A model generated the notes under the pieces. It saw nothing but the letters and a program-made list of their open reading frames with translations. It had not been told where the DNA came from and searched no databases. From assembly GCA_964347565.1 (NCBI GenBank), contig CAYFZD010000001.1, forward strand, positions 70,024-134,023: 64,000 bases of DNA, in the 5' to 3' direction. The position numbers were made by a program, and so were the translations under genes. This document shows positions 24,674-64,000 of this stretch, piece after piece (within the stretch, counting starts at the first letter, position 1; every line of letters begins with the position of its first letter). Origin of the DNA: an uncultured Pseudomonadales bacterium (GTDB lineage: Bacteria; Patescibacteriota; Microgenomatia; UBA1400; UBA12108).

Positions 24674-24674
24674 T

Positions 24675-27588: not shown

Positions 27589-27617
27589 TCGCTAATCTGC
27601 TAAAATGTGGGCTGACC

Positions 27618-30650: not shown

Positions 30651-30654
30651 TTTT

Positions 30655-31917: not shown

Positions 31918-31921
31918 CACC

Positions 31922-32893: not shown

Positions 32894-32913
32894 TCTCAGC
32901 TACAATCTTCCAC

Positions 32914-34227: not shown

Positions 34228-34239
34228 TATACTAGTGGC

Positions 34240-38549: not shown

Positions 38550-38571
38550 TCCACTTGCTATACTTAAGTTC

Positions 38572-40334: not shown

Positions 40335-40424
40335 TAAAGATGATAAGATCAATCATATGACCAACAATATAAATTCTAATAAAAATCGAAATGGTTGCAG
40401 TGTAACGAAGTGGAACGAAACACC

Positions 40425-41717: not shown

Positions 41718-41727
41718 TAGGAAATCT

Positions 41728-42855
41728 ATGGGTCTAGTAAAACCAGATTTAAACGCGGTCGCCAAAATCAAAGTGATTGGAATTGGAGGTGGAGGCAACA
41801 ACGCCGTGGCCTCGATGGTCACCACTGGTAAGATCAAAGGTGTCGAATTCGTCTCTATCAATACCGACTCGCAAGCACTCCTCAATAACCCAGCCAGTGT
41901 CAAAATCCAGATAGGAGAGAACCTCACCAAGGGTCTAGGTAGCGGCGCTGATCCCGAGATCGGAGCCCAAGCCGCCCAAGAATCTCGTGAAAAAATCAAA
42001 GAGCTTCTCATGGATACCGACATGGTCTTTATCACCGCTGGTATGGGCGGTGGAACTGGCACAGGAGGCGCTCCCCTCATTGCCGAGATTGCGAAGGAAG
42101 CGGGTGCCCTGACTGTCGCTGTCGTCACCAAGCCCTTTGCCTTCGAAGGCATCCGTCGCATGAGTGTGGCCGAGGACGGGATCGAGGAGCTCAAAGGCAA
42201 GGTAGATACTCTCATCGTGATCCCCAATCAAAAACTGATGGACGTGGTAGACAAAAAAATGACGCTCCAGGAGGCCTTCCGGGTCGCTGACTCGGTGCTT
42301 GGCCAAGGAGTGCAAGGGATCTCTGATCTCATCACCGTGGCTGGGCTCATCAACGTCGACTTCGCCGACGTTCGCGCCATCATGACCGACGCCGGTACTG
42401 CGCTCATGGGCGTGGGTATGGGAACGGGAGAGAATCGCGCCCAAATGGCGGCTCGTACTGCTATTTCTTCTCCATTACTTGAGGTTAAGATCGACGGGGC
42501 CCGTGGGATTCTCTTCAATATTACTGGTGGCCCGAGTCTCACCATGACCGAGGTCTCCGAGGCCGCGGAGATGATCTCCACGCACGCCGACCCCGACGCC
42601 AATATCATCTTTGGCGCTACGATCGACGAGGCGATGGGTGACCAGATCAAGATCTCGGTGATCGCGACCGGGTTCGATAATACAAGGGGAGGATTTGGCA
42701 ATCTCCAGGGCATTGGTCAGTCTGCGACGATCAAGTATGACCCCTCAGATGATGACACCCCCAGCGACGACGACGATTCCACCGCGCCTCCCAAACCACC
42801 CGCCTCCGACTCTAGCGATCCCTTCGATATCCCGGCGTTCTTAAGACAAAATTAG
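41728..42855 (+). CDS. ftsZ: cell-division GTPase FtsZ
   Basis: [10 protein letters not shown] tubulin signature, the NTDAQAL-like region, an acidic linker and the conserved C-terminal FtsA-binding peptide DIPAFLR. Confidence 0.97.
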
Positions 42856-43369: not shown

Positions 43370-43398
43370 TTGCTATTTATTATAAGACATGATAGTAT
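43370..43398 (+). promoter_or_regulatory. candidate promoter with extended -10 (TTGCTA-17 bp-TGaTAGTAT)
   Basis: TTGCTA at 43370-43375, TG at 43390-43391 and TAGTAT at 43393-43398. The predicted TSS is about 2 nt before ATG 43407, giving a near-leaderless mRNA. The same TGATAGTAT element precedes the major pilin gene. Confidence 0.35.
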
Positions 43399-43406
43399 TC
43401 GCAAAT

Positions 43407-43970
43407 ATGTTCAAAACAATCTTAGCCCTCTTTATCATTTCGCTCGCGATCCTCTCGCAACACCCAGCCATCTCCGCGGCCAAGCCCTTCCCTCGACCTT
43501 CTCGTACGCCCAAACCAAGTTGGACTCCCAAACCCAGTCCCAGGGTGTCGCCTACGCCAACCCCATCTCCCTCTCCTACTCCTACCCCAACCCCTACACC
43601 AACCCCTACGCCTTCTCCCACTCCAACACCAACTCCAACACCAACGCCCACACCTACGCCTACTCCTTCCCCTAGTCCCACCATCACTTCCGTGAATCGT
43701 CAGGAATGTAGTGTTGGCTCAAGCTGCTACGGACTGGTGACTAATGTCCAGGTTTTTGGTTCCGGATTTGCGATTGACTCGCGCGTGTCCCTCAAAAAAA
43801 CCTATCTCTCCGGGAGTCCAGAGGAATTTGGCCGCTATGTCGGTGGCAACGGCTCCAGCTACATCTTGACTGACTTTACCCTCGCACACTGTACTACCTA
43901 CAATGTCACCGTCAGCGGTAGCACAGGATCTGTCACTGCAACTGGTCTACTCACCTCGATGTGTCCGTAA
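43407..43970 (+). CDS. secreted protein with (Thr/Ser-Pro)n linker and Cys-containing C-terminal domain
   Basis: Signal peptide [24 protein letters not shown], then about 40 residues of [12 protein letters not shown] repeat, then a 100-aa domain with 4 Cys. The ORF track starts it at the upstream ATG 43389. Confidence 0.6.
43549..43680 (+). repeat. imperfect hexanucleotide (CCNACN)n microsatellite encoding the TP/SP linker
   Basis: Visible runs of cctacgcc/aacccc/tacacc/aactcc units. The complementary strand yields a spurious GVGVGV ORF (43373..43687 in the track). Confidence 0.8.
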
Positions 43971-43996: not shown

Positions 43997-46768
43997 ATGA
44001 CCAAAACTACGCTAAAGGTAGATAAATTCGAATCTGCCTTGAATCACGCCCAGCATGAAGAAGAGGTGCTCAAGTATTGGGACGAAACTAACGCTTTTGA
44101 GCGTTCTGTCAAAGAGCGTCCAGAGGACAAACCCTACGTTTTCTACGACGGACCCCCCTTCGCCACCGGCCTCCCCCATTACGGCCATCTCTTGGCCTCT
44201 ACCGCCAAAGACGTTGTGCCTCGCTATTGGACCATGAAGGGCTACCGCGTTGAGCGCACCTGGGGCTGGGACTGCCACGGGGTACCGATCGAGAACATGA
44301 TCGAAGGCGAGCTCGGGCTCAAAGGTGGCAAAAAGGGGATCGAGGAGCTAGGTATAGACAAATTCAACGCCGCCTGTCGCTCATCTATTCTGCGCTACGA
44401 CAAAGAGTGGCAAATCACCATCAAACGCCTGGGCCGCTGGGTCGATATGGAAAACTCCTACAAAACTATGGACAAATCGTTCATGGAATCAGTCTGGTGG
44501 GCGTTTAGTGAGCTCTACAAAAAGGATTTGGTCTATCAGGGTCGGAAAGTAGTCCTCTATTGTCCCCGCTGTTCTACTCCTCTCTCCAATTTTGAGATCG
44601 CCATGGACAACTCGTATAAAGATGTCGAATCCCACTCAGTTTACGTCAAATTTAGAGTCAAAAATACTCAAAATGAATTTTTTGTAGCCTGGACGACAAC
44701 CCCCTGGACACTCCCTGGCAACGTTGGCCTGGCCGTCAATCCCACAGCCGACTATGCTCTCGTTGAGTCAGGCTCTGAGAAACTCTGGTTCGCCAAAGAC
44801 TTATCGCCCAAAGAATCAAAAGTCCTCAAGGTCGTCAAAGGTACAGAATTAGTTGGTCTCACTTACGAGCCACTCTTCAATTTTTTGCCAGTCGGTGAGA
44901 CCAAATCCTATATCGTTTGCAGTGGCGATTTTGTCACCCTCGAGGACGGGACAGGCATCGTCCACACCGCGGCTATCTACGGCGAAGACGACTATGCCTT
45001 GGCCATCAAAGAAGGTTTACCCACGATTCCCATGCTCGATGATCAAGGCAAATTCCTTGATTTTGTCGCTCCACTTGCCGGTCAGTTTTATACCAAGTCA
45101 CAGGCATGGGTCATCAGAGATTTGACCGAGAGAAACTTAATGTTTAAAAGTGAGATGACCTCTCATTCTTACCCTTTCTGCTATCGCTGTGGCACCGCTC
45201 TCTACTACAACGCTATCCCTGCTTGGTTCATCAACATCCAAAAACTGAAACCAGAGATGGTCAAACAAAACGAAAATATCTCTTGGTATCCCTCCTTCCT
45301 GAAAAAGGGACGTTTTGGCAAAGGTCTCGAGACCGCCCCGGACTGGAATATTTCTCGCTCGAGGTACTGGGGTACCCCCATGCCTATCTGGATAGGGGAG
45401 AAGGGGAGTATCCGTGTCATCGGCTCCGTTGATGAATTACGCCGTTACTCCGTTACCCCATTACCTGATTTACCTGACATCCACCGCGAATTTATTGATG
45501 ATTTAGAAATCTGGGTAGATGATGCCAAAACCGAAAAAGGACGACGCATTCCCGATGTCTTTGATTGTTGGATCGAGTCTGGGAGCATGCCCTTTGCGGC
45601 GGAGCATTATCCCTTCGATGGTAAGACCTCGTTCGAGTCGCGCTTTCCTGGCCAGTATATCGTCGAATACATTGCCCAGACTCGTGCCTGGTTCTACACT
45701 CTCCACGTCATGTCGGTGGCGCTTTTTGGCAAACCAGCCTTCGAAAACGCGGTCACGACTGGCACTATTCTCGCCGAAGATGGCACCAAGATGAGTAAGA
45801 GCAAGAAGAACTATCCCGACCCCACGCTCCTCATCAACAAGTATGGGGTCGACTCGCTCCGTCTCTATCTCATGAGCTCGGTCGTGATGAAAGCCGACAA
45901 CTTGAGTTTCTCCGAGACCTCCGTGGACGATATCCGCAAAAATGTCATGAACATTTGGTGGAATATCTTCGCATTCTATAAAACCCTTGCCCCTACCATC
46001 GACCATTTACCATCGACCATCGACCATCCGCTGGACAAATGGCTCTTGTCCAAAATCGAGGGCTTGACTCACACCGTCACCAAATACATGGACGCCTACG
46101 ATGTGGTCTCCTCGTGCCGCCCGCTCATGGCCTTCGCCAAAGAGTTCTCCACCTGGTATCTCCGCCTCTCACGCGAACGTCTACGTGAGAACCCAGAGAG
46201 CCAAGCTATCATGGGCTACGCGCTCAAGCGCTACTGTCTCCTCATGGCGCCCTTTGCGCCCTTTATGGCTGAGCGCATTTATCAGAATCTACCTCACGAA
46301 TTCGATAGTGTCCATCTTGAGCTCTGGCCGACAGTTGATGTTTCTAGAATAGACCTTGAGCTCGAAAAATCCATGGAGATTGTGATGCAAATAGTCGAGA
46401 AGGGGCACGCGGCGCGCAAAGAGGCGGGGATCCGCCTGCGCCAACCTCTTTCCTCCATCACCATTTCCGAAGCGGATCTGTCCGCCGACCTGCGTCAGCT
46501 GATGGCGGAAGAACTCAATGTTAAGTCCATTTTGACTGGCCACTTCTCCCTCGATACCCAACTCACTCCCGCGCTTGAGGATGAGGGAACTGCTCGCGAT
46601 CTCATGCGAGACATTCAAGGTGCGCGCAAAAAATTGGGTCTCTCTCCCTCTGATGTTGTGACCATAGAGTTACCAGCGTGGCCAAAAGACTGGACGGAAG
46701 AGATCAAGAGAAAAGTCAACGCCAAAGAACTCAACGTTGGATCAACACTGACTGTAACTAAAATATGA
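43997..46768 (+). CDS. ileS: isoleucine--tRNA ligase, type 2 (eukaryote/archaeal-like, no C-terminal zinc finger)
   Basis: HIGH-type motif PHYGHLL, KMSKS motif KMSKSKKN and CP1 editing domain. 923 aa ending without a Cys cluster. Confidence 0.95.
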   Translation: MTKTTLKVDKFESALNHAQHEEEVLKYWDETNAFERSVKERPEDKPYVFYDGPPFATGLPHYGHLLASTAKDVVPRYWTMKGYRVERTWGWDCHGVPIENMIEGELGLKGGKKGIEELGIDKFNAACRSSILRYDKEWQITIKRLGRWVDMENSYKTMDKSFMESVWWAFSELYKKDLVYQGRKVVLYCPRCSTPLSNFEIAMDNSYKDVESHSVYVKFRVKNTQNEFFVAWTTTPWTLPGNVGLAVNPTADYALVESGSEKLWFAKDLSPKESKVLKVVKGTELVGLTYEPLFNFLPVGETKSYIVCSGDFVTLEDGTGIVHTAAIYGEDDYALAIKEGLPTIPMLDDQGKFLDFVAPLAGQFYTKSQAWVIRDLTERNLMFKSEMTSHSYPFCYRCGTALYYNAIPAWFINIQKLKPEMVKQNENISWYPSFLKKGRFGKGLETAPDWNISRSRYWGTPMPIWIGEKGSIRVIGSVDELRRYSVTPLPDLPDIHREFIDDLEIWVDDAKTEKGRRIPDVFDCWIESGSMPFAAEHYPFDGKTSFESRFPGQYIVEYIAQTRAWFYTLHVMSVALFGKPAFENAVTTGTILAEDGTKMSKSKKNYPDPTLLINKYGVDSLRLYLMSSVVMKADNLSFSETSVDDIRKNVMNIWWNIFAFYKTLAPTIDHLPSTIDHPLDKWLLSKIEGLTHTVTKYMDAYDVVSSCRPLMAFAKEFSTWYLRLSRERLRENPESQAIMGYALKRYCLLMAPFAPFMAERIYQNLPHEFDSVHLELWPTVDVSRIDLELEKSMEIVMQIVEKGHAARKEAGIRLRQPLSSITISEADLSADLRQLMAEELNVKSILTGHFSLDTQLTPALEDEGTARDLMRDIQGARKKLGLSPSDVVTIELPAWPKDWTEEIKRKVNAKELNVGSTLTVTKI

Positions 46769-47835
46769 AATGGCTTCCCGACCACTGGCTCACTACACTC
46801 TATCTGATCGCCTCAATTACTAGCCTTGTGATTCTGACAAGTATTTCGCCCGAGCGAGTAGGTCAGCAAGCTCTCACCTTTGGACTAGGGTTGGGTATTT
46901 TTATCTATCTCGCCAACCAAGACGCCGCAGTCTACAAAACTTTTGCACCCCTTGGCTACATTTTTTCTCTACTGCTCCTCCTGGCCACCCTTATTTTTGG
47001 CTCTCCAGTGAGGGGGGCTATCCGGTGGATTACTTTGGGCTCGTCCCAGTTGCAAGCTGGGGAGTTTGTGAAGCCGCTCCTTGTGCTCGCTTTTGCACAC
47101 TTCCTGACAGTCTTTCCTCCCAAGTCACTCAAACATATCTTCACCCACCTACTCCTCATTTCTCTCCCTGTCTGGCTCATTTTTCGTCAACCCGATCTGG
47201 GTACTGCGCTTGTCGTGAGTTCGATTTGGGGAGCCCAACTATTTGTCGCAGGTATCTCGTACTGGTTCTTGGGTGGTGTCGCTGCATTAGGCTTGGCCGC
47301 TGCACAGTTTCTACCTCGCCTCCTCCACGAGTATCAGCTCAAACGACTAGAGACTTTTATAGATCCGTTTCGTGACCCCTTGGGTGCTGGGTATAACGTC
47401 ATCCAATCTATCATTGCCGTTGGCTCTGGTGGTCTACTGGGTAAAGGGCTGGGTCACGGTACCCAATCACATCTTCGCTTTCTTCCCGAGCGCCATACTG
47501 ACTTTGTTTTCGCGTCTATTGCTGAAGAACTTGGTATCATCGGCAGCATCCTGATCATTCTCTGTCTGGGAGGATTATTGTTCCGACTCATCTCGCTCGC
47601 CACCCATTCTCGCGATGAGACTTCACGCTTGATCTACACAGGAAGCTTCGGTTATCTGGCCTTCCAGATCTTTATCAATATCGGGATGAATATAGGGATT
47701 GCTCCGGTGACCGGGGTCACTTTGCCCCTTATCTCCTATGGCGGAAGCTCAATTTTGGCCACCGCGGTCACGCTCGGTATCGCCTCGTCGCTAGCTCGCA
47801 CCGATTCACAAGATGCCTTGCTCGAAATACGCTAA
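46765..47835 (+). CDS. rodA: SEDS-family protein RodA-like
   Basis: 10-TM FtsW/RodA architecture with the conserved APVTGVTLPLISYGGSSILA block. It is a second SEDS gene outside the dcw cluster. ATGA overlap with ileS. Confidence 0.8.
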   Translation: MKWLPDHWLTTLYLIASITSLVILTSISPERVGQQALTFGLGLGIFIYLANQDAAVYKTFAPLGYIFSLLLLLATLIFGSPVRGAIRWITLGSSQLQAGEFVKPLLVLAFAHFLTVFPPKSLKHIFTHLLLISLPVWLIFRQPDLGTALVVSSIWGAQLFVAGISYWFLGGVAALGLAAAQFLPRLLHEYQLKRLETFIDPFRDPLGAGYNVIQSIIAVGSGGLLGKGLGHGTQSHLRFLPERHTDFVFASIAEELGIIGSILIILCLGGLLFRLISLATHSRDETSRLIYTGSFGYLAFQIFINIGMNIGIAPVTGVTLPLISYGGSSILATAVTLGIASSLARTDSQDALLEIR

Positions 47836-49674: not shown

Positions 49675-50052
49675 ATGAGTGATACCCAAAAACATATCTT
49701 GATAGTGGAAGATGATGATCTAATCGCCAAATTGTACCAAGCGAGTTTGGTAGATTCTGGTCTTCACATTCAGCTCGAAACTGATGGTGACTCAGGTTGG
49801 CAAGCACTACAAGCCCAGATTCCCGACTTGGTGATACTAGATATCATGCTCCCCAAACTCAGTGGTCTCGATCTGCTCGAGAAGATGCGTGCTGATGAAC
49901 GACTCAAAGTAGTGCCCGTGATCATGTTAAGTAGTCTCAGTAGCGAGTCCGACAAAGCACGAGCGCTGGCGGCCGGGGCCAATGCTTACTGGGTCAAAAA
50001 CGAAGTTGATATGCCACAGTTCTCGGCACAAATCAAAAGCTTCCTCCCATGA
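49675..50052 (+). CDS. single-domain response regulator (CheY-like REC only)
   Basis: ILIVEDDDLIAKLY...DLVILDIMLPKLSGLDLL...VPVIMLSS gives the acidic pocket, phospho-Asp and conserved Lys region. There is no output domain (125 aa). Confidence 0.85.
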   Translation: MSDTQKHILIVEDDDLIAKLYQASLVDSGLHIQLETDGDSGWQALQAQIPDLVILDIMLPKLSGLDLLEKMRADERLKVVPVIMLSSLSSESDKARALAAGANAYWVKNEVDMPQFSAQIKSFLP

Positions 50053-51299
50053 CTAACCTATTCAAATATTTTTCCCCTCAGTCATCACTCACTGATGGCT
50101 TAAATAAACGGCTTGCCACTATCACTTCGTCCGAAATCAATCTACCCATACTTGAGAAAAAACTCAGAGATATTCTAGTGGGAGAGTTCTCTGCATCTGG
50201 CGCGGCATTTGTCCTAGTTGCGGACTTTGTCGCCGCTCCTCCCGATTCTCTAATCACGCCCAATCCCTTAAATCTCAAATATGCTCGTCTCGAGAAACTC
50301 CAACACCGCGTCAAACAGACCATGATCTTGGACCAACTTACCGATCCGGCCGACAAACAGCTGTTTGCTGATTTGGGCATTGCTCTGATCTTACCCCTCA
50401 CTGTCCAAGAAGAGGATCTTGGTCTCCTACTTTTGGGTCCTATAAAAAATCATAAGAGTTATCGACCATCCGAGATCAAATCACTCGAGTCAGTCCTCGC
50501 CAGTATCTCAATTGCAATTAAAAATGCCCTAAGTTACCGCAAAATCCAAGAACTCAGTGCCTCCCTGGAGAGCAAAGTCATCGCTCGTACCCACGAACTA
50601 CAGGCCGCGCAAGAAGCCCAGCTCAAACTCAAAGACGAATTTGTCTTTATTGCCACCCACGATATCGCCACCCCAGTAGCCGCGATTACTGGTTTTGTTG
50701 CCCTCATCAATAGCCAAGGTGCAGAGCTCCCCTCTGAGATCAAGAATTATCTCGATTCCATTACGCAAGCCAGTAATCGTTTGAGCGCCCTGGTCAAAGA
50801 TCTTTTGGAGGTTGCGAGGTCCGACTCCAATACCATCAAGCTTGCTCTTACCCAATTTGATGCCAAGCCCATTATTGAGTCTGTGGTTGAGACCATCACT
50901 CCCCTCGTCAAGCAGAAAAATATTCAGTTGGTACTGGCACTGGGGAATGACAACCTCGTTCTGGCAGACCCAGCCAAACTCGCCGAAGTCTTTGAAAACT
51001 TACTTAGCAACGGAGTCAAGTACAACAAAGTTGGGGGTGAACTCAAACTCACCTCCAGTATTTTTGCCGACCAACTAGTCTTTACCCTGACCGATACTGG
51101 TATCGGGATTGACCCAGCAGAGTCTCCCAAGGTCTTTACCAAATTCTTCCGCTCAGACTCACCCGAGGCTAGAAAAAATCCTGGTACCGGTCTAGGCCTG
51201 TTTGTGGCCCGTATGCTCACGCAAAAAATGGGTGGAAAGATTTCCTTTACTTCAGTCCTAAACCAGGGGACAACATTCACCCTTACCTTTAACCGTTAA
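50049..51299 (+). CDS. soluble sensor histidine kinase (GAF/PAS-like N-terminus, HisKA + HATPase_c)
   Basis: H-box FIATHDIATPVAAITGF, N box LLSNGVKYN, G boxes DTGIGI and GTGLGL. No TM segment. ATGA coupling with the REC gene. Confidence 0.8.
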   Translation: MTNLFKYFSPQSSLTDGLNKRLATITSSEINLPILEKKLRDILVGEFSASGAAFVLVADFVAAPPDSLITPNPLNLKYARLEKLQHRVKQTMILDQLTDPADKQLFADLGIALILPLTVQEEDLGLLLLGPIKNHKSYRPSEIKSLESVLASISIAIKNALSYRKIQELSASLESKVIARTHELQAAQEAQLKLKDEFVFIATHDIATPVAAITGFVALINSQGAELPSEIKNYLDSITQASNRLSALVKDLLEVARSDSNTIKLALTQFDAKPIIESVVETITPLVKQKNIQLVLALGNDNLVLADPAKLAEVFENLLSNGVKYNKVGGELKLTSSIFADQLVFTLTDTGIGIDPAESPKVFTKFFRSDSPEARKNPGTGLGLFVARMLTQKMGGKISFTSVLNQGTTFTLTFNR

Positions 51300-51337
51300 T
51301 ACTTTATACTCTATTCTCAATACTCTATACTGTTCCT

Positions 51338-53023
51338 ATGATACTGCCCGACGATCAACTGCGCGCTATTCTCGAAAAAAACGGCTCGGTCAACCCAGAA
51401 ATTCTAAAAGCCATTGCTCCACTCTTGGGGAGTGAGCATGGTGGACTCTCTGCTCAGCTCATCTCTCGCCATATTTTGACCGACGAGCAACTCGGCCAAA
51501 TTTTAGCTAAAACAATCAAAGTTCCCTTTGTCACCCTCTCCAAGCTCAGTATCACTCCCGATGTGTTTGCTCTCGTCCCTCCCCGCCTGATGCTCAAAAA
51601 CAAACTTGTGGCCTTTGAAAAAACCGGCAAAACCCTCAAGGTAGCCATGTCCGATCCTCGCAACAAAAGTCTGGTCGAAATGCTCTCCAAAAAAACCGAT
51701 CTCAAAATCGAGGTTTACTATGCCACCGAGTCAGATATTACCAGTCTAGTCAGTCTCAACAAAAAACCTCTTCAGCTCACGATCGATGAATTACTCAAAA
51801 ACGAGATCGCCCTCTCCACTAGCTCCACCAGCGATAGTCTGCCTATCGCCAAGATCGTTGATATTCTCATCAACACAGCCTACGAAGATCGTGCCTCTGA
51901 TGTCCACATCGAGCCCCAAGAGACCGAGAGTCTCGTGCGCTTCCGTATCGACGGGGTGCTCCAGGATGTTTTACGTCTCCCCAAACCCATCCACGATCGC
52001 ATGATTACCCGTATTAAAGTTCTCTCCAATCTGCGTACCGACGAGCACATGAGTGCTCAGGATGGCAAGATGCGGGTTATGATCCCCCAGGAACAGCTCG
52101 ATATTCGTGTCTCGATCCTGCCCGTCTCAGGTGGAGAAAAAGTTGTCATGCGTCTTTTATCCTCAAAGTCGCGGGAGTATTCGCTCGAGAGTCTTGGTAT
52201 GGCCAAAGAAGATCTGGTCAAGCTCGAGCGCGCCTATGCCCAGACTTATGGCATGATTCTCTCTACAGGCCCCACTGGCAGTGGCAAGACTACTTCGATT
52301 TATGCCATTCTCAAAATTCTCAATACCCGGGAGAAAAATATCACCACCATCGAAGATCCCGTCGAGTATTGGATCAGTGGTGCCAACCAAGTACAAGTGA
52401 ACGTCAAAACTAATCTGACCTTTGCCGATGGTTTGCGCTCCATCCTGCGACAAGACCCCAACATTATATTTGTGGGTGAGATCCGCGACAACGAAACGGC
52501 GGGGATCGCGGTGAACGCTGCCTTGACCGGTCACTTAGTGCTCTCGACTCTCCATACCAACGACGCAGCCACCGCTATTCCCAGACTTTCCGATATGGGC
52601 GTCGAGCCCTTCCTCGTGGCCTCGACTGTCCGCGTCATCGTGGCTCAGAGACTCCTCCGCAAGATTTGCGATAGCTGTAAAACTAGTATCGATTTCACGC
52701 TCCAAGAGCTCTCTAAACACTTTGCACTAGAGACCCTCAAAAAATATTTCCCTTCAGGTACAAAAGTCACGACCTATCGCGGCGCTGGCTGTAAGCTCTG
52801 TCACAAAACAGGCTACAAAGGACGTCTAGGCGTCTTTGAGGTACTCGAGGTCAGCAAGGAGATTCGCAGCCTAATCGCGCAAAAATCCGACGCCGAGGCT
52901 ATCAACCAGCAGGCACTCAAAGAGGGGATGCGCTCGATGCTCGATGACGCCATGATCAAAGTGCAAAAGGGCCTGACTACGATCGAGGAAGTGATCCGGG
53001 TTACCAAGTCGGAGGCGCTATGA
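51338..53023 (+). CDS. pilB: type IV pilus / type II secretion assembly ATPase (PilB/GspE family)
   Basis: N-terminal GspII-like domain, Walker A GPTGSGKTT, Asp box, Walker B, His box and tetracysteine motif CDSC...CKLC. Confidence 0.92.
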   Translation: MILPDDQLRAILEKNGSVNPEILKAIAPLLGSEHGGLSAQLISRHILTDEQLGQILAKTIKVPFVTLSKLSITPDVFALVPPRLMLKNKLVAFEKTGKTLKVAMSDPRNKSLVEMLSKKTDLKIEVYYATESDITSLVSLNKKPLQLTIDELLKNEIALSTSSTSDSLPIAKIVDILINTAYEDRASDVHIEPQETESLVRFRIDGVLQDVLRLPKPIHDRMITRIKVLSNLRTDEHMSAQDGKMRVMIPQEQLDIRVSILPVSGGEKVVMRLLSSKSREYSLESLGMAKEDLVKLERAYAQTYGMILSTGPTGSGKTTSIYAILKILNTREKNITTIEDPVEYWISGANQVQVNVKTNLTFADGLRSILRQDPNIIFVGEIRDNETAGIAVNAALTGHLVLSTLHTNDAATAIPRLSDMGVEPFLVASTVRVIVAQRLLRKICDSCKTSIDFTLQELSKHFALETLKKYFPSGTKVTTYRGAGCKLCHKTGYKGRLGVFEVLEVSKEIRSLIAQKSDAEAINQQALKEGMRSMLDDAMIKVQKGLTTIEEVIRVTKSEAL

Positions 53024-54087
53024 CAGACAAAACCAAACAATTTGCGAGGGTGACCCTCAAGGGGACCGAAAAACTCGAGTTGATCGGAAGTTTTGCCACC
53101 ATGCTTGGCTCTGGTATCTCAATCCTAGATATGGTCAAGTCGCTCGCCGAGGATACCAAGGGGGGTCAGCGCCTCATCCTCGATGAAATGCGCGACGATT
53201 TGACCCAGGGTAAACGGATCTATGTGACTTTTGCCAAGTTCCCTCGCGTCTTCGACCATGTGAGTGTCAATGTCATCCGCGCCTCCGAGGAGGCCGGAAC
53301 GCTCGACGTCGCCCTACGAGATCTACGCACTACTCTCCAAAAGGACATGGAGTTCTCCGACAAGATTCGCTCGGCCCTCATGTATCCCGCCTTTATCCTC
53401 GTGGTATTTGTCGGGATCTTGGGTATGATCTTAACTTTTGTGATCCCCAAAATTAGCGTCGTCTTTACCCAGCTCAATGTTCCGCTCCCGTTCCCCACCC
53501 GCGTAATGATTTTTCTCTCTGACCTCGTCGTCAAACAAACACTCTGGTTTGGGCTGGGGCTTGCAATTGTCGCCGGACTCTTGTTTTATCTCTTTAGCTA
53601 CAAGCGCAAACAAGTACTCGAGGTCCTTTATCGGCTTCCCCTCATCTCCACCCTAGTTATGCAGATCGACGTCACCAATTTTGCCCGCAATCTCTCCGTT
53701 CTCCTCTCATCCGGTCTCCCCATCACCCAAGCACTTGACCTAGTGGCCGAGGTCGTGGTGCGCCGTCGCATGGCCCAGCTTTTACTCAACGCCAAAGCGA
53801 TGGTGCTGGCTGGTCGCCCGCTCTCCTCCGGGTTTCGCGATGACAAAGGCGCTGTCCCCAATATCGTCATCAAGCTCGTAGAGGCCGGGGAGAAAACTGG
53901 CTCGCTCGACCGCTCGCTCCAGGAGATCGCCGAGTACTTTGATTACAAAGTGACCTACACGCTCAAATCGCTGACCGCACTCCTTGAGCCCATCATGCTC
54001 GTTCTAGTGGGCGGGGTTGTCGGGGGGATGATGCTCGCAATCATTGCTCCAGTTTATGGACTCATTAGTCAAATTGGTGGGCACTAA
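53020..54087 (+). CDS. pilC: type IV pilus platform protein (PilC/GspF family)
   Basis: Two GspF repeats with 3 TM helices, 355 aa. ATGA coupling to pilB. Confidence 0.88.
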   Translation: MTDKTKQFARVTLKGTEKLELIGSFATMLGSGISILDMVKSLAEDTKGGQRLILDEMRDDLTQGKRIYVTFAKFPRVFDHVSVNVIRASEEAGTLDVALRDLRTTLQKDMEFSDKIRSALMYPAFILVVFVGILGMILTFVIPKISVVFTQLNVPLPFPTRVMIFLSDLVVKQTLWFGLGLAIVAGLLFYLFSYKRKQVLEVLYRLPLISTLVMQIDVTNFARNLSVLLSSGLPITQALDLVAEVVVRRRMAQLLLNAKAMVLAGRPLSSGFRDDKGAVPNIVIKLVEAGEKTGSLDRSLQEIAEYFDYKVTYTLKSLTALLEPIMLVLVGGVVGGMMLAIIAPVYGLISQIGGH

Positions 54088-54088
54088 G

Positions 54089-54499
54089 ATGAAGTGGGGA
54101 CTTGCCCTGAGCTTGCCGAAGGGTTTCACTCTCGTGGAGCTCATGGTCACGATTGGGATCTTTGCGGTCCTAGCCACTCTCTCCTCGATCAATTTTTTCT
54201 CGACTTATTCCCAGTCCAATTTGGGTGCCACGCAAGATGTCTTGATAGCTGATTTAAAAACTGCCCAATCTAACGCCATGTCAGGCTCCTCGGACGTCAC
54301 CTGGAGCATTACAACGATGACTCCGCTCTCGCCAGGCCTGACTTTGACTACTGAGTATCCTAGTAATCAAGTCACTTTTCTGCGTGGATCGGGTGAAATC
54401 TCTGGCTACAACAGTGATTACGACACCATTACCATCAGTTCAAGTATCGAAAGCAAAACGCTAGAACTCAATAAATATGGCACCATCACGGGAAATTAA
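54089..54499 (+). CDS. type IV pilin-like (pseudopilin) protein
   Basis: Class III signal MKWGLALSLPKG|FTLVELMVTIGIFAVLA, i.e. the prepilin peptidase site and N-methylation motif. Start taken at MKWGL. Confidence 0.8.
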   Translation: MKWGLALSLPKGFTLVELMVTIGIFAVLATLSSINFFSTYSQSNLGATQDVLIADLKTAQSNAMSGSSDVTWSITTMTPLSPGLTLTTEYPSNQVTFLRGSGEISGYNSDYDTITISSSIESKTLELNKYGTITGN

Positions 54500-56464
54500 A
54501 TGAAATTATTTAAATACGGTCAGGCACTTGTAGAGATGATGGTGGGGATGGGTATCGCCGCCGCCATCATGCCTGCGCTCGTGACCTCGTTCTTTGCTGC
54601 TCGCGGAGGGAGCGCCCAAGAGCAAGTGCGCATGCAGGCCCATGGACGCCTGCGCGAGGCCCGCGAGGTTTTGCGACTAATCAAGCAAGACGATTGGGAT
54701 GCTGTCGACACTCCTGAGACGTACCACCCAGCTTTAGTCTCAGGTTCCTGGCGCTTAGATCCGGGACTAGAGTCCAACCTCGATGGACTCTTCAGTCGCC
54801 AAATCATTCTCTCTTATGCCTATCGCACAGGGACAAACCAACTAACTACTCTCTCTGCGGGGAATACTCTAGATCCCTCTGTTATGCACGTCAATATCTC
54901 CGTCGCCTGGACCAATCCCATCGCTTCTTCCGTTGTCTCTGATTACTATCTTATGCGCCTCGAAAACCTCGCGCATATCGAAACCTCTTATGCCGACGAC
55001 TTTGACTTGGCCACGAACCCCAACGTCGTGCATCGCTCGACGGTCGCCACCAATGTCTCAGGAGGCGAAGTCCAGCTCGGGGGATCAGGTAGTGGGGTCG
55101 GCAACTGGTGTGATCCTAGTCTGACCCTCCAGACTCTCAATCTGGTTCACTCCTCCGTCCCCACCTCCATCTCTGCGATCGAAGGTCACGCCTACGCCAC
55201 GACCGGAGAAAATGCCTCTGGACATCCACTCACAAGCATTAACATCACCAATCCTCCTCCTCCCACCCTACCCACTCCCACTGAGGGGGGGAGTTACAAT
55301 CCCAACCCTCAGCCCAAAGCCTACGGCTTATTTGCCACCAGCAATTATGTATATATTGCTACCAAACCGGCCGGAAATCCCAAAAAGACAGTCGATATTT
55401 TAAATACTTCTTTAGTCTCTGTAGGGTATTTTGACGCAGGTAATAAAACAGGCGATAGCATTTATGTGTCAGGCACCGTTGGTTATGTGACCAGCGGCAC
55501 GACTCTCTACACTTTTGACTTGTCCGGGACAATAAATCCTTCTCCAGGGTTGCTCAGTACTACGATTGCAGGTAACGGTAAAAGGGTCATCGTCATGGGT
55601 AACTACATCTATGTAGTCACTGACAATACGACATCTCAGCTACAAATCTTTAACAAAAGTAACTTATCTCTCGTCAAAACGCTCAACTTAGGCAACAGTC
55701 AACCAGGTGTAGATATCTTTGTCAAATCTACAAGCGACTACGCCTATATGGTTACTAATTACGCCTCCCCCGACTTCTTTGTCATCGATCTCTCCAACAA
55801 CACTGTGGTAGGCACCTACACTACCGCCAGCAACATGAACCCCAGAGGTGTCACAGTCATACCCCAGGATAATATCGCGATCATTGTCGGAGCAGGGAGT
55901 GACTTGTACCAAGTCCTGCGAATTGGTATTCCCACTAGTCCCTCTAGATGTGGCACTCCGCTCACTTTTCCGAATGTGAGCGAGCTTTACGCGATCTCGT
56001 CTGTCACCGAGTCCGACACCGATGCCTATTCGTACGTCCTCACGAACGACGCGAGTAATGAATTCCAGATGATCCAGGGTGGCCCAGGCGGAGGGGGCGG
56101 AGGCAGTGCCCTCACTGGCGTTTTTGACTCCGAGCCCTTCACGCCCGTTAGCCTCGCCACCTTCAACCGTTTCGACGTCAATACCTCTTTACCTGCTGGC
56201 ACTTATGACAATTACCAAGTTGCTGTAGCCAACAAAACCGCAGGTGGTAGTTGCATCGGAGCTAACTACATATTTGTTGGACCGGGCATGGATCCCAGTC
56301 AATGGTTTACAACTAGCGCGCAGATACCCCTGGGCATCGGTACGGGAGCCGCTTTGGGATATGTCAATCCAGGGCAATGTTTTCGATACAAAGTCTCGCT
56401 CTCCACCGACACTCTGGGCACCTCCCCCATCTTTAATGATATTACAATCAATTACTCACTATGA
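54500..56464 (+). CDS. large pilin-like protein fused to a YVTN-type beta-propeller domain (candidate pilus tip adhesin)
   Basis: The N-terminus GQALVEMMVGMGIAAAI resembles a prepilin hydrophobic segment. The body has repeated YVVTD / YAYMVTN / YVTSG blades reminiscent of YVTN beta-propeller repeats, and a GGPGGGGGGS tract near aa 525. Confidence 0.55.
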   Translation: MKLFKYGQALVEMMVGMGIAAAIMPALVTSFFAARGGSAQEQVRMQAHGRLREAREVLRLIKQDDWDAVDTPETYHPALVSGSWRLDPGLESNLDGLFSRQIILSYAYRTGTNQLTTLSAGNTLDPSVMHVNISVAWTNPIASSVVSDYYLMRLENLAHIETSYADDFDLATNPNVVHRSTVATNVSGGEVQLGGSGSGVGNWCDPSLTLQTLNLVHSSVPTSISAIEGHAYATTGENASGHPLTSINITNPPPPTLPTPTEGGSYNPNPQPKAYGLFATSNYVYIATKPAGNPKKTVDILNTSLVSVGYFDAGNKTGDSIYVSGTVGYVTSGTTLYTFDLSGTINPSPGLLSTTIAGNGKRVIVMGNYIYVVTDNTTSQLQIFNKSNLSLVKTLNLGNSQPGVDIFVKSTSDYAYMVTNYASPDFFVIDLSNNTVVGTYTTASNMNPRGVTVIPQDNIAIIVGAGSDLYQVLRIGIPTSPSRCGTPLTFPNVSELYAISSVTESDTDAYSYVLTNDASNEFQMIQGGPGGGGGGSALTGVFDSEPFTPVSLATFNRFDVNTSLPAGTYDNYQVAVANKTAGGSCIGANYIFVGPGMDPSQWFTTSAQIPLGIGTGAALGYVNPGQCFRYKVSLSTDTLGTSPIFNDITINYSL

Positions 56465-56982
56465 GCCATCAACCATTAACCATTAACCATAAGCTCGGTT
56501 TTACAATCCTTCGACTTCGCTCAGGATTTACAATGGTCGAGATGCTCATGGTCATGGGGATCACAGGCGTGATGCTCGTAGTCCTCTCCCAGGTTTTTGG
56601 CGCTATACTCAGCATGAAACTACGCTCCCAGGCGACGAGTTTCGTGGCCCAAGATTCACGCTATGTCCTCAATCGTCTAGCTTACGACGTGATGCGCGCG
56701 AGCGATATCGTGAGCGGGAGTGGCAATACCCTCACCCTCACGATCGACGGAGTGAGTCATGCTTATTCAGTCTCTGGCACCACCCTCATGCTCTCTGTGG
56801 ATGGAGCTCCAGAAGAGAAGCTCACGGGGATCGGAACCCAGATCAGCTCGCTGACTTTCACCCGCACAGACTTGAGCGGTCACAAGGCCGTCCAGATCAG
56901 CATGAATATTGCCCCCACCATTATCCAGCCAGGAGGCGTGACCGGGGCGCGTCAGCTTACGACCACCGTGGCATTGAGGTAA
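56461..56982 (+). CDS. type IV pilin-like (pseudopilin) protein
   Basis: SG|FTMVEMLMVMGITGVMLVVL prepilin motif after a 22-aa leader. Confidence 0.7.
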   Translation: MSHQPLTINHKLGFTILRLRSGFTMVEMLMVMGITGVMLVVLSQVFGAILSMKLRSQATSFVAQDSRYVLNRLAYDVMRASDIVSGSGNTLTLTIDGVSHAYSVSGTTLMLSVDGAPEEKLTGIGTQISSLTFTRTDLSGHKAVQISMNIAPTIIQPGGVTGARQLTTTVALR

Positions 56983-56988
56983 AAATAT

Positions 56989-57357
56989 ATGAAAAAAGGC
57001 AACGTCTCTATCATGCTTGTCCTGATCATCATGGTGCTCACCGTGCTCACAACTGCCGCCGTGGCCCTCGCCATCTCTACCACTCGTGATACCACCACCA
57101 TCACACTCGGTGAGCGCGCCCTCACGATCGCCGAGTCCGGGGCCGAGAATGCGATTCTGCGACTCCTACGTGATCCCAGCTATACGGGGGAGTCAGGCTT
57201 GCTGATTGGTCCCGGGTCTGCCACAATTGCAGTCACGGGGACATCACCCAAAACCATTACCAGCACAGGGGCCGCAGGCGCATTTACCCGCATCGTCAAA
57301 GTCGATGTGACGAATGTGGGAGGCGCGCTCACCCCAACCAATTGGCGAGAAGAATAA
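56989..57357 (+). CDS. PilX-like minor pilin / pilus assembly protein
   Basis: N-terminal hydrophobic segment SIMLVLIIMVLTVLTTAAVALAI without a G-F cleavage motif. Small, Thr-rich, and located in the pilin gene array. Confidence 0.45.
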   Translation: MKKGNVSIMLVLIIMVLTVLTTAAVALAISTTRDTTTITLGERALTIAESGAENAILRLLRDPSYTGESGLLIGPGSATIAVTGTSPKTITSTGAAGAFTRIVKVDVTNVGGALTPTNWREE

Positions 57358-57358
57358 T

Positions 57359-58009
57359 ATGCTAGGACAAAAAAGTTGGCTCACGATCATGCTCAGCGGC
57401 AATTCTCTGCAATTTATTGGACAGGATATCGATGTAGTCCAGACTATCCCACTCCCCCCGACGCTAGTCAATAACATGGAGGTCGTCAACAAAGATGGTC
57501 TCTACACCTTGATCACCGACTGGGTCAAGGCTCGCACCTATACCAACACCAATATTCTGCTCCTACTCGCTCCCGATCTTTGTTTTTATCATCAATTTGT
57601 GAATATCGAGCAAGACAAGGTAGATAGTGAGACCCTCCAATTCCTCGATACCGTCCCCTTTGAAAGTGTTTTGAGTCGTACCTATGCACTCGGTGAGGGG
57701 AGGCAGATTATCGCGGCAAACAAGGATCTGGTCATGGCCCTCGTCCAGGGCTTCACGCTCCACGGCTACACCACCAAAGTCGTCGTACCCGCTATTCTCG
57801 CCCAGGCTGAGACTGGCCTCACTCCCGAGGTAGAGAATTATGCCTTCAAACACCTGACAGAGCTCACACGAGATAGCCTCATCTCTGAGGTAGCGCCCGT
57901 TGTTTCCTCGGTAGCAAAGCCCAAACCCAAATCTTCATTGCCACTACTACTGAGTGTTTTTGGAGTGCTACTTGCAATCCTCGTAATTGTGATAGTATTA
58001 AGTAAGTAA
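57359..58009 (+). CDS. hypothetical C-terminally membrane-anchored protein of the pilus locus
   Basis: 216 aa with a soluble N-terminal domain, a Lys/Pro linker and a C-terminal TM (LLLSVFGVLLAILVIVIVL). No family recognised. Confidence 0.4.
   Translation: MLGQKSWLTIMLSGNSLQFIGQDIDVVQTIPLPPTLVNNMEVVNKDGLYTLITDWVKARTYTNTNILLLLAPDLCFYHQFVNIEQDKVDSETLQFLDTVPFESVLSRTYALGEGRQIIAANKDLVMALVQGFTLHGYTTKVVVPAILAQAETGLTPEVENYAFKHLTELTRDSLISEVAPVVSSVAKPKPKSSLPLLLSVFGVLLAILVIVIVLSK
57972..58001 (+). promoter_or_regulatory. candidate promoter for the major pilin gene (TTGCAA ... TGaTAGTAT extended -10)
   Basis: TTGCAA at 57972-57977, TG at 57990-57991 and TAGTAT at 57993-57998, located inside the 3' end of the upstream gene. 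It leaves a roughly 27-nt leader carrying GGAGG. Confidence 0.35.
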
Positions 58010-58031
58010 TAAATTATTTTGGAGGAAACAT

Positions 58032-58481
58032 ATGAAACTTGCCCAAGTTATTAAGAAAGGGTTTACATTAATCGAGCTCCTGGTCGTCATCGGGATTCTG
58101 GCAATTTTGCTCGCCATCACCCTGATCGCCATCAACCCTGCGCGTCAATTCGCGCAAGCCAACGACACCAAGCGCAAGTCAGATGCTGCCGCGATCTTGA
58201 ATGCGATCGGGCAATATAGTGCTGACAATGCAGGCGCACTGCCTGGCACACTGGGCACAACCGCCCTCGAGATCAGCAATACAACTACCGCAGATATCTG
58301 TGATGAGTTGGTGCCTACCTATCTCTCAGCTCTCCCAGTTAACAATGCTACTGGTACTGGAGTATCGCTAACGACTTGTCCGGCCACCTACGCTACAGGT
58401 TATACCGTCAGCGTAACCGGTGGTAGAGTTACCGTCTCTGTTCCCGGACAGATCACTGACCCGATTACTGTCACTCGTTAA
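58032..58481 (+). CDS. pilA: major type IV pilin (PilA-like)
   Basis: MKLAQVIKKG|FTLIELLVVIGILAILLAI is a canonical type IVa prepilin leader plus N-methyl-Phe segment. A perfect GGAGG sits 6 nt upstream, and the gene is followed by a strong terminator. Confidence 0.9.
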   Translation: MKLAQVIKKGFTLIELLVVIGILAILLAITLIAINPARQFAQANDTKRKSDAAAILNAIGQYSADNAGALPGTLGTTALEISNTTTADICDELVPTYLSALPVNNATGTGVSLTTCPATYATGYTVSVTGGRVTVSVPGQITDPITVTR

Positions 58482-58501: not shown

Positions 58502-58530
58502 AAAAAACCCCGCCTAAGGCGGGGTTTTTT
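58502..58530. terminator. bidirectional rho-independent terminator
   Basis: AAAAAA-CCCCGCC-TAA-GGCGGGG-TTTTTT: a 7-bp GC stem flanked by an A-tract and a T-tract, so it functions on both strands. It sits between the convergent pilA and a small minus-strand ORF. Confidence 0.85.
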
Positions 58531-58548: not shown

Positions 58549-58710
58549 TTACATCGTGTAGCTCTTCACAAGCATATAGGAGAGTAGCACCATCCCTATC
58601 GCAAAAACGACAAGGAGTATGTTCATCTTCTCACTCATCTGTTCCACTTTTTTCTCTATCTTTACCATTGGCTTGGCGACTGTTCTTATTTTCTTTTTGG
58701 CTGCGGGCAT
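58549..58710 (-). CDS. small tail-anchored membrane protein (53 aa), not in the ORF track
   Basis: Reverse-strand ATG 58710 is preceded by GGAGG with a 5-nt spacer. My translation is MPAAKKKIRTVAKPMVKIEKKVEQMSEKMNILLVVFAIGMVLLSYMLVKSYTM, a basic N-terminus with a C-terminal TM. It ends just before the bidirectional terminator. Confidence 0.45.
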   Translation of the reverse strand: MPAAKKKIRTVAKPMVKIEKKVEQMSEKMNILLVVFAIGMVLLSYMLVKSYTM

Positions 58711-62254: not shown

Positions 62255-63137
62255 TTTAAAATCTCGCTCAGCGGGACCGCTCGTCTCCATCCTCATCCCC
62301 GCTTTCAATAGTGCCAAATACTTGGGTCTTGCCCTAGACTCCGTCCTCGCCCAAACTTACAACAACATTGAGATCATCGTCCACGACGACGCTTCTACGG
62401 ACGCAACCCCATCAATCCTTAAAAAGTACTCCGATCCTCGACTCCACATCATTCGCACTGTGGATAATCACGGCATGATCGGCGGGTGGAATTACATCGT
62501 TGCCAAAGCCAAGGGAGAATATATCAAATTTCTCGCCTCAGATGATCTGCTCGCTCCCACGGCTGTTGCAGAATTAGTCAGAGCCGCGCTTGCCCACCTA
62601 GAAGCCGCCATCATCACGTCTCAGCGCCAGTTTATCGATGAGCAGGGGAGGGTAATTAAGAAAATGGGTTTCTCCACCAAACATTCCGTCGTAGACGGCA
62701 AGACTCATGCCCACTGGATCCTCACCACGCTCAGGGAGAATAAGATCGGCGAGCCTACGGCCGTGCTCTACCCCAGAGCACTAGTGAAGGAGGCTGGGGA
62801 GTATGATCCGCGCTTCTCCCAGTTCGCTGATTTTGAGTACTGGATCCGCCTCCTCCAGTTCGGTGACCTAGTTTATGTGGACAAACCTCTCTGCTCTTTC
62901 CGCCTACATGCGAGTTCCAACACCGCCGCCGCCATTCGTGATGGTCGCTTTATCACCGAGACTTTTCAAGTGATAAAGAAATACCATTACCTCCTTACTC
63001 CAGCTGAGCGTTCTAGCGTCACACGTATGAAAATTCTCGATACACTCAAAAATATTAAAGATCTTATGTTTACAGGAAAAATTACTCAGGCTTTACGCTA
63101 TACAGGCAGGCTCGTCAGTTCTGTTGTATCAGCATAA
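62244..63137 (+). CDS. family-2 glycosyltransferase
   Basis: VSILIPAFNSAKYL...IIVHDDASTD...LASDD motifs. Start at MKNSLK overlaps the upstream stop. Confidence 0.85.
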   Translation: MKNSLKSRSAGPLVSILIPAFNSAKYLGLALDSVLAQTYNNIEIIVHDDASTDATPSILKKYSDPRLHIIRTVDNHGMIGGWNYIVAKAKGEYIKFLASDDLLAPTAVAELVRAALAHLEAAIITSQRQFIDEQGRVIKKMGFSTKHSVVDGKTHAHWILTTLRENKIGEPTAVLYPRALVKEAGEYDPRFSQFADFEYWIRLLQFGDLVYVDKPLCSFRLHASSNTAAAIRDGRFITETFQVIKKYHYLLTPAERSSVTRMKILDTLKNIKDLMFTGKITQALRYTGRLVSSVVSA

Positions 63138-64000
63138 TATAGTTCTGCAATTGGGTTTTGACCTCAGGAGCGATAAATTTAGGTGATTGCTGAGAGATAA
63201 ACTTGTTCAGATTGGGTAGGGAGCTCATGTCGGCGAGAAGATTGGTGAAGCGGGCATAAAGGGCCTGAAAAATCCCATTTGCTGGAGTTTTTGACTGTCT
63301 CAGAGTCTTGAGATACTCGAATATAGAAGTGTAGTTGAGCACAATCGGACCATTGAGGTTGGGTATGGAGGAATAATTAATAGCGAAGTTGGCGCTCGTG
63401 GCGGGAGGGATCACGAGTTCATCTAGGGACACTCCTCCGTTCTCGTCATATAAATAGGTATCGACCGCTGTGGGCGCGCCAGTTGGATTCTCTATGTGCA
63501 GCGCATAGATCCCATCAGCAGGCTTAGGGATCATCGAGGTCAACACACTCGGACTTGGCGCTCCACCCATATCATCGTCGATATGTTCCTCTACCCAATT
63601 CATCGCTACAGGGTTACCAAGGGGATCACTCATGCTGATATTCACTCCTGGAGGCGATACAAACACCATATAGGAGAGATCAGTGAATGAGGGGATGAAA
63701 CGATTGATACTGCGAATCGTGCTAGTCATGGGCAGGTCTGTTGCATCCTCATCATTTGGATCGTTGATCTTCCAGTTCGGAGTTTCTGAGCCGTGCGCCA
63801 CGATGAAGTGGCCTGGTAGACCCAGGATGGCTGGTAGGACTGGAGTGGTAGGGGAGTATTCACGGACGAACTCGAGCTTGTAAGGTGCGTGACCTGCCAG
63901 ATAACTCAGCCGCGCGTAGCGGGTGATCGCGATCCAGTTCACGAGCCCAGGACCGACATAACCATCAGGCTGGGTCTTGAGCCATGCGTTCAGTTTACTC
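63115..64000 (-). CDS. hypothetical protein, C-terminal part (reading frame stays open to the window end)
   Basis: The track ORF begins at GTG 63942, but the same frame has no stop up to position 64000, so the gene probably starts outside the window. It is convergent with the GT2 gene (23-nt overlap). No family recognised. Confidence 0.45.
   Translation of the reverse strand, partial: SKLNAWLKTQPDGYVGPGLVNWIAITRYARLSYLAGHAPYKLEFVREYSPTTPVLPAILGLPGHFIVAHGSETPNWKINDPNDEDATDLPMTSTIRSINRFIPSFTDLSYMVFVSPPGVNISMSDPLGNPVAMNWVEEHIDDDMGGAPSPSVLTSMIPKPADGIYALHIENPTGAPTAVDTYLYDENGGVSLDELVIPPATSANFAINYSSIPNLNGPIVLNYTSIFEYLKTLRQSKTPANGIFQALYARFTNLLADMSSLPNLNKFISQQSPKFIAPEVKTQLQNYIMLIQQN

Follow-up and report, generated by a model that had tools for sequence, protein, structure and literature searches.

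A compact eight-gene type IV pilus operon with a predicted tail-anchored PilM/GspL-fold protein in a Microgenomates-like bacterium

Background

Bacteria of the Candidate Phyla Radiation (CPR), which are described as having no outer membrane (PMC6744442), widely encode the type IV pilus proteins PilB, PilT, PilC, PilN, PilO and PilD together with a "GspL domain PilM", often in co-localized genes and never with PilQ (Méheust et al. 2019, PMC6744442). All of these pil genes lie in one locus in the complete Microgenomates genome Ch65 (PMC7143001), and CPR-wide surveys have found no PilQ (PMC6744442; PMC7143001). A role in DNA uptake has been proposed for such pili (PMC6744442), and cryo-electron tomography shows pili on cultivated CPR cells (PMC12206443). 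In TM7x, a second type IV pilus (T4P) locus lacks pilT and pilD, and the beta-propeller pilin PilX2 has been proposed as the adhesin by which a thin, maybe non-retracting pilus binds the host (Grossman et al. 2025, PMC12206443); mutants in this second system, T4P-2, are reported to be affected in host binding, not in competence (PMC12206443). The subject of the present analysis is an eight-gene locus at positions 51338-58481 of a 64,000-nucleotide stretch of contig CAYFZD010000001.1 (the window, to which all positions given here refer unless another contig is named), which fits this known kind, the secretin-less T4P already described from CPR bacteria.

The locus is best explained, at a probability of about three in four, as a self-contained T4P assembly operon of a single-membrane, secretin-less CPR/Patescibacteria (Microgenomates-like) bacterium. 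In such a system, five leaders would be cleaved after a conserved glycine by a prepilin peptidase (PilD) encoded outside the window. A PilB hexamer would drive pilin polymerization, kept at the membrane through predicted contacts with PilC and with the tail-anchored, PilM/GspL-like product of open reading frame (ORF) 7, which would stand in for the PilM-PilN-PilO or GspL-GspM sub-complex. Four minor pilins would initiate assembly and form the tip, from which a propeller would be presented as an adhesin for host cells or surfaces, and PilA would form a shaft that crosses the peptidoglycan without a secretin. Retraction would either depend on a PilT encoded elsewhere or be absent. The locus departs from the described systems in three respects: genes for PilT, PilD, PilN and PilO do not adjoin it, its propeller pilin carries a canonical prepilin motif, and its PilM/GspL fold is predicted for a tail-anchored protein that is an orphan by sequence.

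Organization of the operon

Eight co-directional ORFs on the plus strand make up a compact, tightly packed T4P operon (Table 1). Their order is PilB ATPase, PilC platform protein, three prepilins, a PilX-like pilin, a tail-anchored protein of 216 amino acids (aa) and the major pilin. The original prediction had placed PilB, PilC, four pilin-like proteins, a tail-anchored protein and a major pilin at these positions, all in one direction, and had called the whole a compact T4P locus; the ORFs, Pfam matches, motifs and overall gene content agree with that description. The intergenic gaps range from -4 to +6 nucleotides (nt), with the exception of a 22-nt gap before the last gene, pilA, and the genes are therefore taken as one transcription unit with translational coupling.

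Five other genomes (L008, L009, L010, L012 and L013) have these eight genes in the same order; the cassettes of L012 and L013 are more distant. A scan of GTDB representatives with the ORF7 profile returned four relatives. The syntenic relatives include Microgenomates group bacterium GW2011_GWF2_46_18, named sources of homologues are Candidatus Shapirobacteria, Patescibacteria group, Saccharimonadia and Amesbacteria, and all cassette-bearing relatives are CPR metagenome-assembled genomes (MAGs). With relatives among the Microgenomates, Shapirobacteria, Amesbacteria and Patescibacteria, homology and synteny point to a Microgenomates-like member of the CPR/Patescibacteria, and a secretin-less, CPR-type cell is expected.

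The signals at the two ends of the operon differ. Upstream of pilB, the -10-like TATACT of a promoter-like site ends 7 nt 5' of an ATG that has no Shine-Dalgarno (SD) sequence, and the pilB or operon mRNA may for this reason be leaderless. A full SD sequence occurs within the operon only before pilA, which is predicted from these signals to be a strongly translated, terminator-bounded operon end. The terminator hairpin folds at -22.4 kcal/mol (z -3.68). It is common to pilA and a convergent 53-aa ORF (58549-58710, minus strand), which has a Lys-rich N-terminus and a C-terminal transmembrane (TM) helix, has no Pfam match, and is called as a gene in metagenome contig L001.

The major pilin had also been credited with a promoter of its own. 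The SD sequence and the terminator are real, but such a promoter is undemonstrated: the 22-nt gap is too short to hold one, and a sigma-70 consensus scan found no plus-strand promoter before pilA and did not flag the weak extended -10-like site inside the 3' end of ORF7 either. L008 and L009 share the TGnTAnnnT element of this site. In L010, TTGACA-17-TACTAT precedes pilA in a true intergenic region, created by an extra gene between the PilM/GspL-like gene and pilA (L010:10716-11561, 281 aa, no Pfam match) that is absent from the window. The conserved element is suggestive only of a weak internal pilA promoter, and coding constraint on the conserved TM segment of ORF7 could explain its conservation instead.

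Table 1. Features of the pilus operon in the window. A slash marks the predicted cleavage site in prepilin leaders.
Feature	Position	Strand	Length	Matches and sequence features
Promoter-like site upstream of pilB	51303..51331	+		TTTATA-17-TATACT; consensus scan, pattern match only
PilB/GspE-type extension ATPase	51338..53023	+	561 aa	Pfam T2SSE 5.6e-127, MshEN 1.9e-15
PilC/GspF platform protein	53020..54087	+	355 aa	Pfam T2SSF, two stretches, 8.6e-50
Minor pilin 1	54089..54499	+	136 aa	Leader MKWGLALSLPKG/FTLVE; N_methyl 2.2e-7, TIGR02532 1.8e-7, GspH 6.7e-7
Modular giant pilin	54500..56464	+	654 aa	Leader MKLFKYG/QALVE
Minor pilin 2	56461..56982	+	173 aa	22-residue leader ...LRSG/FTMVE; N_methyl 6.7e-4, TIGR02532 2.7e-4
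PilX-like minor pilin (ORF6)	56989..57357	+	122 aa	K-x-G/NVSIML, no Glu5
Tail-anchored protein, predicted PilM/GspL fold (ORF7)	57359..58009	+	216 aa	
Candidate internal pilA promoter	57972..57998	+		TTGCAA-15 nt-TGaTAGTAT (extended -10-like); weak, inside ORF7 3' end
Shine-Dalgarno sequence of pilA	58021..58026	+		GGAGGA, 5 nt 5' of ATG
Major pilin PilA	58032..58481	+	149 aa	Leader MKLAQVIKKG/FTLIE; N_methyl 1.2e-7, TIGR02532 2e-8, GspG 4.3e-8
Bidirectional intrinsic terminator	58502..58530			A6-CCCCGCC-TAA-GGCGGGG-T6; RNA fold

The tail-anchored protein

The protein encoded by ORF7 is predicted to consist of a cytoplasmic half-actin alpha/beta domain (residues 1-172), a disordered linker, the sequence KPKSSLPLLL and a single C-terminal TM helix (194-215), at which it ends, with no extracytoplasmic part. 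Its start, MLGQK, lies one base past the preceding stop codon and is conserved in 29 homologues. Neither Pfam, NCBIfam nor the PDB sequences gave a match to ORF7, and a profile of the 29 sequences found nothing relevant in the PDB. The Pfam families PilM_2 (PF11104) and T2SSL (PF05134) were matched neither by ORF7 (E<=1) nor by ten members of its family (E<=0.1). An AlphaFold2 model built on the 29-sequence alignment is confident, with a predicted local distance difference test score (pLDDT) of 86.7 and a predicted template modeling score (pTM) of 0.75. In a Foldseek comparison, the top 16 places all went to PilM, EpsL, GspL and PulL (E 2e-7 to 8e-6), with PilM ranked ahead of GspL and with FtsA behind. 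In the model, ORF7 has the cytoplasmic actin-like (acetate and sugar kinase/Hsc70/actin, ASKHA) fold of the PilM/GspL type, and it is best described as a predicted relative, reduced and tail-anchored, of the PilM/GspL platform proteins. The earlier view that the locus has no inner-membrane alignment component would then have to be given up, as the modeled ORF7 itself has this fold.

The truncated actin-like cytoplasmic fold is common to ORF7, to GspL/EpsL of type II secretion systems (T2SS) and to PilM of type IVa pili (T4aP) (PDB 4pht, 1yf5, 5tkw, 2ych and 5eou), although sequence identity is 14-18%. As in GspL, a single TM helix follows the domain, the gene is part of the pilus operon, and no nucleotide-binding motif is evident. 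Because the phosphate-1 DxG motif of actin is not conserved in the family alignment, ORF7 probably does not bind nucleotide, and in this it would be closer to GspL than to PilM. The domain is smaller, however, at ~170 aa compared with ~230 aa in the cytoplasmic part of GspL and ~350 aa in PilM. The periplasmic ferredoxin-like domain is lacking, so that the ORF7 of the window does not have the GspL succession of cytoplasmic domain, TM helix and periplasmic domain, and the neighboring genes encode no GspM or PilN/O partner.

A full profile search places ORF7 in a family of at least 1284 representative clusters at 50% identity (E<=1e-3), 953 of which are reached at E<=1e-10. Among 196 family sequences, 117 end no more than 12 residues past the TM helix and are thus tail-anchored, 26 have 13-60 residues after the helix, and in 39 this extension exceeds 60 residues. 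LytR_C is matched by several of the long forms; with a cytoplasmic domain, a TM helix and an ectodomain, the long forms therefore have a full GspL-like topology. In L012 and L013, forms of this long type (388 and 355 aa; hhalign probability 98.6-99%) hold the position of ORF7.

Among the close relatives of ORF7, KPKSSLPLLL and the TM helix are almost invariant, which suggests that this segment makes a specific intramembrane contact and is not a passive anchor. A PilN-type "INLLP" peptide within the KSSLPLLL motif was considered and is not claimed, as the residue order differs. It is a tentative idea, with the odds somewhat against it, that the whole alignment sub-complex (PilM-PilN-PilO or GspL-GspM) has been reduced to this one 216-aa protein, with KPKSSLPLLL and the TM helix docking to PilC or to the pilins.

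The ATPase and the platform protein

PilB has an N-terminal MshEN/T2SSE_N domain, the Walker A sequence GPTGSGKT and a tetracysteine CxxC...CxxC motif, the last of which is typical of extension ATPases. Its Pfam T2SSE match is above the cut-off, as expected of the T2SSE-family hexameric extension ATPase found throughout the type IV filament superfamily. In residues 1-140 (51338-51760), reading by eye finds the Arg, Gly and Gln of the cyclic di-GMP-binding motifs RLGxx(L)(L)xxG...Q to be missing. PilC, whose gene overlaps pilB by 4 nt, is a polytopic platform protein of the GspF/PilC type (T2SSF 168 bits, cut-off 25.2). About 50 N-terminal residues of the GspF model are missing from it (NCBIfam GspF positions 55-399 of 401), and its length of 350-355 aa is conserved among relatives. 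As judged from its sequence, the MshEN-type domain of PilB is probably not a receptor for cyclic di-GMP, and it may be where the PilM/GspL-like protein docks.

In NCBIfam, PilB scores 523 bits against the PilB model and 520 bits against GspE (cut-off 630), below both equivalog cut-offs. The GspF (219.8 bits, cut-off 424) and GspG (33 bits, cut-off 88.85) scores fall short as well, as do those of ComGA (249.7 bits, cut-off 300, a match to the ATPase core only) and ComGB (138.3 bits, cut-off 240). By these profile scores, the system is outside the curated T4aP, T2SS and ComG equivalog families.

Pilins and the predicted tip

Four class III signal peptides (Gly at -1, a hydrophobic alpha1 and Glu at +5) are conserved in orthologues and coincide with the start coordinates of their genes: KG/FTLVE (54089), YG/QALVE (54500), SG/FTMVE (56461) and KG/FTLIE (58032). 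A six-frame regular-expression search of the 64 kb found no further canonical prepilin motif. In three of these four pilins, N_methyl and TIGR02532 are matched above their cut-offs. Minor pilin 1 resembles GspH and ComGD at its N-terminus only, and PilA is weakly GspG-like; the PilA orthologues are 65-68% identical, and two cysteines are conserved among them.

The giant pilin is predicted to be modular, with an alpha1 helix (residues 6-64), a pilin sheet (73-160), a seven-bladed beta-propeller (~200-530) and a C-terminal beta-sandwich (540-654). Comparison with PDB sequences gave nothing meaningful, and fold comparison alone worked, so that this domain assignment is one of modeled structure. 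Residues G7, Q8 and E12 are conserved in 34 homologues. By analogy, the giant pilin is probably a tip adhesin. A close parallel is T4P-2 of Nanosynbacter lyticus TM7x (loci two and three), which is likewise an accessory set without pilT or pilD of its own and has a minor pilin with a seven-bladed beta-propeller, the adhesin proposed for its tip; its major pilin is highly expressed, as the SD sequence and terminator would predict for the window (PMC12206443). There are differences as well. Locus two of TM7x encodes separate pilM2, pilN2 and pilO2 and has its pilins at another locus; PilX2 has no PilD signal, whereas the giant pilin has a conserved G/QxxxE; and the PilX2 propeller is RCC1-like, whereas that of the window is LVIVD/WD40-like.

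The second minor pilin has orthologues that keep GFT[LM]VE. In the public gene call it is 149 aa long and starts at Met25, which removes the G/FTMVE motif, so that a search of the deposited proteins with a pilin finder would overlook it. Late public starts are found in three genes, this one (149 versus 173 aa), ORF6 (114 versus 122 aa) and ORF7 (206 versus 216 aa).

ORF6 has a hydrophobic segment at its N-terminus. Its orthologues keep K-x-G/NVSIML with an invariant G4, and none has Glu5. The family has more than 572 members, and Pfam PilX_N (PF14341) was matched by 11 of 33 scanned members (best 2.4e-5), the window protein itself being unmatched. A PilN/PilO-like bitopic protein was also considered for ORF6 and was rejected in favor of a PilX-like pilin, given the conserved Gly-1 and the PilX_N matches in the family. 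By analogy with GspK and PilX, ORF6 is a candidate for the protein that caps the priming complex. With four minor pilins, of which one lacks E5, the locus matches the usual priming set GspH-I-J-K or FimU-PilV-W-X. In this respect and in the seven-bladed propeller at the tip, the predicted assembly resembles PilY1 and its priming complex. It differs in that the propeller is fused to a pilin module, no separate PilY1 is present, and no sequence similarity to PilY1 was detected.

Missing components and alternative explanations

All window ORFs of at least 110 aa were read, and Pfam was run on those that were unassigned or had several TM segments; around the cassette, the window covers 51 kb upstream and 5.5 kb downstream. 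No Peptidase_A24, PilN/O/P, secretin, GspC or GspM was found in the window, and reading of the ORFs found no ComEA, ComEC or outer-membrane biogenesis genes there. A second T2SSE ATPase (PilT) is absent from the window as well, where tblastn with PilB finds PilB alone. The original prediction that the remaining machinery is absent nearby thus holds for pilD, pilT, pilN/O/P and pilQ, and fails for the pilM-like ORF7. Among the components expected of a diderm type IVa pilus (PilQ with PilMNOP, and PilT), the window encodes ORF7, with its predicted PilM/GspL fold, alone.

The window shares with the CPR T4P described previously (PMC6744442; PMC7143001) the PilB/PilC core, many divergent pilins, a "GspL domain" PilM, the lack of PilQ and the phylum-level group. 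In those systems, however, PilT, PilD, PilN and PilO are co-localized, whereas here they are found neither in the window nor, within 10 kb of the cassette, in L008, L009, L010, L012 and L013. PilP and a secretin are likewise absent from these flanks in the five relatives. The platform protein of the window also differs in having neither a match to a PilM or GspL sequence profile nor an ectodomain.

Several points weigh against a self-contained CPR pilus operon. The prepilin peptidase that is a general component of the type IV filament superfamily is encoded neither in the window nor within 10 kb of the five related cassettes. PilB is under the equivalog cut-offs of PilB and GspE alike. No sequence profile ties ORF7 to PilM or GspL, the assignment being that of the structural model, and a canonical PilMNO set elsewhere in the genome may also serve this system. 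The adhesin role of the giant pilin, finally, is drawn by analogy.

Three other explanations of the locus are each less consistent with its gene content. An unlikely one, though the best of the three, is a ComG-like competence pseudopilus with which a nucleotide-auxotrophic CPR cell would pull in DNA, a use that has been proposed for CPR pili (PMC6744442). Like ComG of Firmicutes, the cassette is a compact, co-directional, secretin-less operon of monoderm type with an ATPase, a platform protein and several pilins, and there are weak N-terminal matches to ComGC, ComGD, ComGE and ComGF. The original prediction had pointed to the same likeness to Gram-positive Com systems, but it does not extend to the details. 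The ATPase is full-length and of PilB/GspE type, with the complete N-terminal domain, ComGA and ComGB are under their cut-offs, and the major-pilin gene closes the operon instead of coming third. ComG systems also have no counterpart of the 654-aa propeller pilin or of the PilM/GspL-like protein, neither ComEA nor ComEC is present in the window, and the TM7x T4P-2 mutants are affected in host binding, not in competence (PMC12206443).

Slightly less probable still is a T2SS-like pseudopilus, an analogue of GspE-F-G-H-I-J-K-L that would push proteins through the wall and form no long adhesive fiber. The window has no secretin, GspC or GspM, all scores are under the T2SS equivalog cut-offs, PilM stands above GspL in the Foldseek ranking of ORF7, and a propeller-bearing pilin suits a tip adhesin; moreover, CPR bacteria are described as having no outer membrane (PMC6744442), and pili are seen on their cultivated cells (PMC12206443). 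A standard diderm type IVa pilus with pilD, pilT, pilMNOP and pilQ scattered elsewhere in the genome is very improbable, for although only 64 kb of the genome is visible and pil genes are dispersed in many bacteria, the cassette-bearing relatives are all CPR MAGs, CPR surveys are without PilQ (PMC6744442; PMC7143001), the cassette has a PilM/GspL-type protein of its own, and the window has no outer-membrane biogenesis genes.

Neighboring genes and the cell wall

The window contains a complete division and cell wall (dcw) cluster (24242-42855) with MraZ, RsmH, FtsI, MurE, MurC, MurB, MurA, DgkA, MraY, MurI, MurD, FtsW, MurG, FtsQ, FtsA and FtsZ. RodA is encoded at 46765-47835. The full dcw/mur cluster and RodA indicate that peptidoglycan is made, and "cell-wall-minimal", a term of the original prediction, therefore does not apply.

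Directly 5' of pilB (49675-51299), with a gap of 38 nt, are genes for a response regulator made up of a receiver domain alone (125 aa) and for a soluble histidine kinase (416 aa). In the corresponding position, L010 has a seven-TM histidine kinase (1307-3433) and L012 has Hpt and REC genes (3141-3895); L009 and L013 have no histidine kinase or phosphorelay genes 5' of pilB. It may be that a phosphorelay controls the pilus operon.

At 232-20378 there is a 20-kb surface-glycan cluster with a DegT aminotransferase, several GT2/GT4 glycosyltransferases and two PMT_2 (ArnT/PMT-like) proteins, and also with a Wzy_C O-antigen-ligase-like protein, a mannose-1-P guanylyltransferase, a WbaP-like sugar transferase and a DUF4012 protein. 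This cluster could glycosylate the pilins or the wall. In a secreted 193-aa protein (43389-43970), a long stretch of (T/S)P repeats leads into a globular end that contains Cys; the protein has no Pfam match and may be a wall-spanning stalk. On the 3' side of the cassette in two relatives (L010:18450-20201 and L008:8746-11139, minus strand), a large secreted protein has Peptidase_C39-like and Ig-like domains. The last ORF of the window (63115-63942, minus strand), which has no Pfam match and runs off the window end, may be the same gene, cut by that end.

Implications

The analysis assigns a predicted fold and a probable function to two genes annotated publicly as hypothetical, those for ORF7 and for the propeller pilin. 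It also shows that several genes lose their prepilin leaders in automatic gene calls and so escape pilin finders. The practical value lies in better annotation and in a compact target for heterologous reconstitution; no new principle is involved. Should the alignment sub-complex prove to be reduced to ORF7, the eight-gene cassette together with a shared PilD would be a minimal bacterial type IV pilus machine, and the unannotated ORF7 family would be a CPR-specific platform protein. Among the means by which ultrasmall CPR bacteria might locate a host and stay attached to it, type IV pili are the best candidates; the window offers a clean and conserved eight-gene cassette for such a machine, and the propeller pilin, as the probable tip adhesin, would hence be a determinant of host range.

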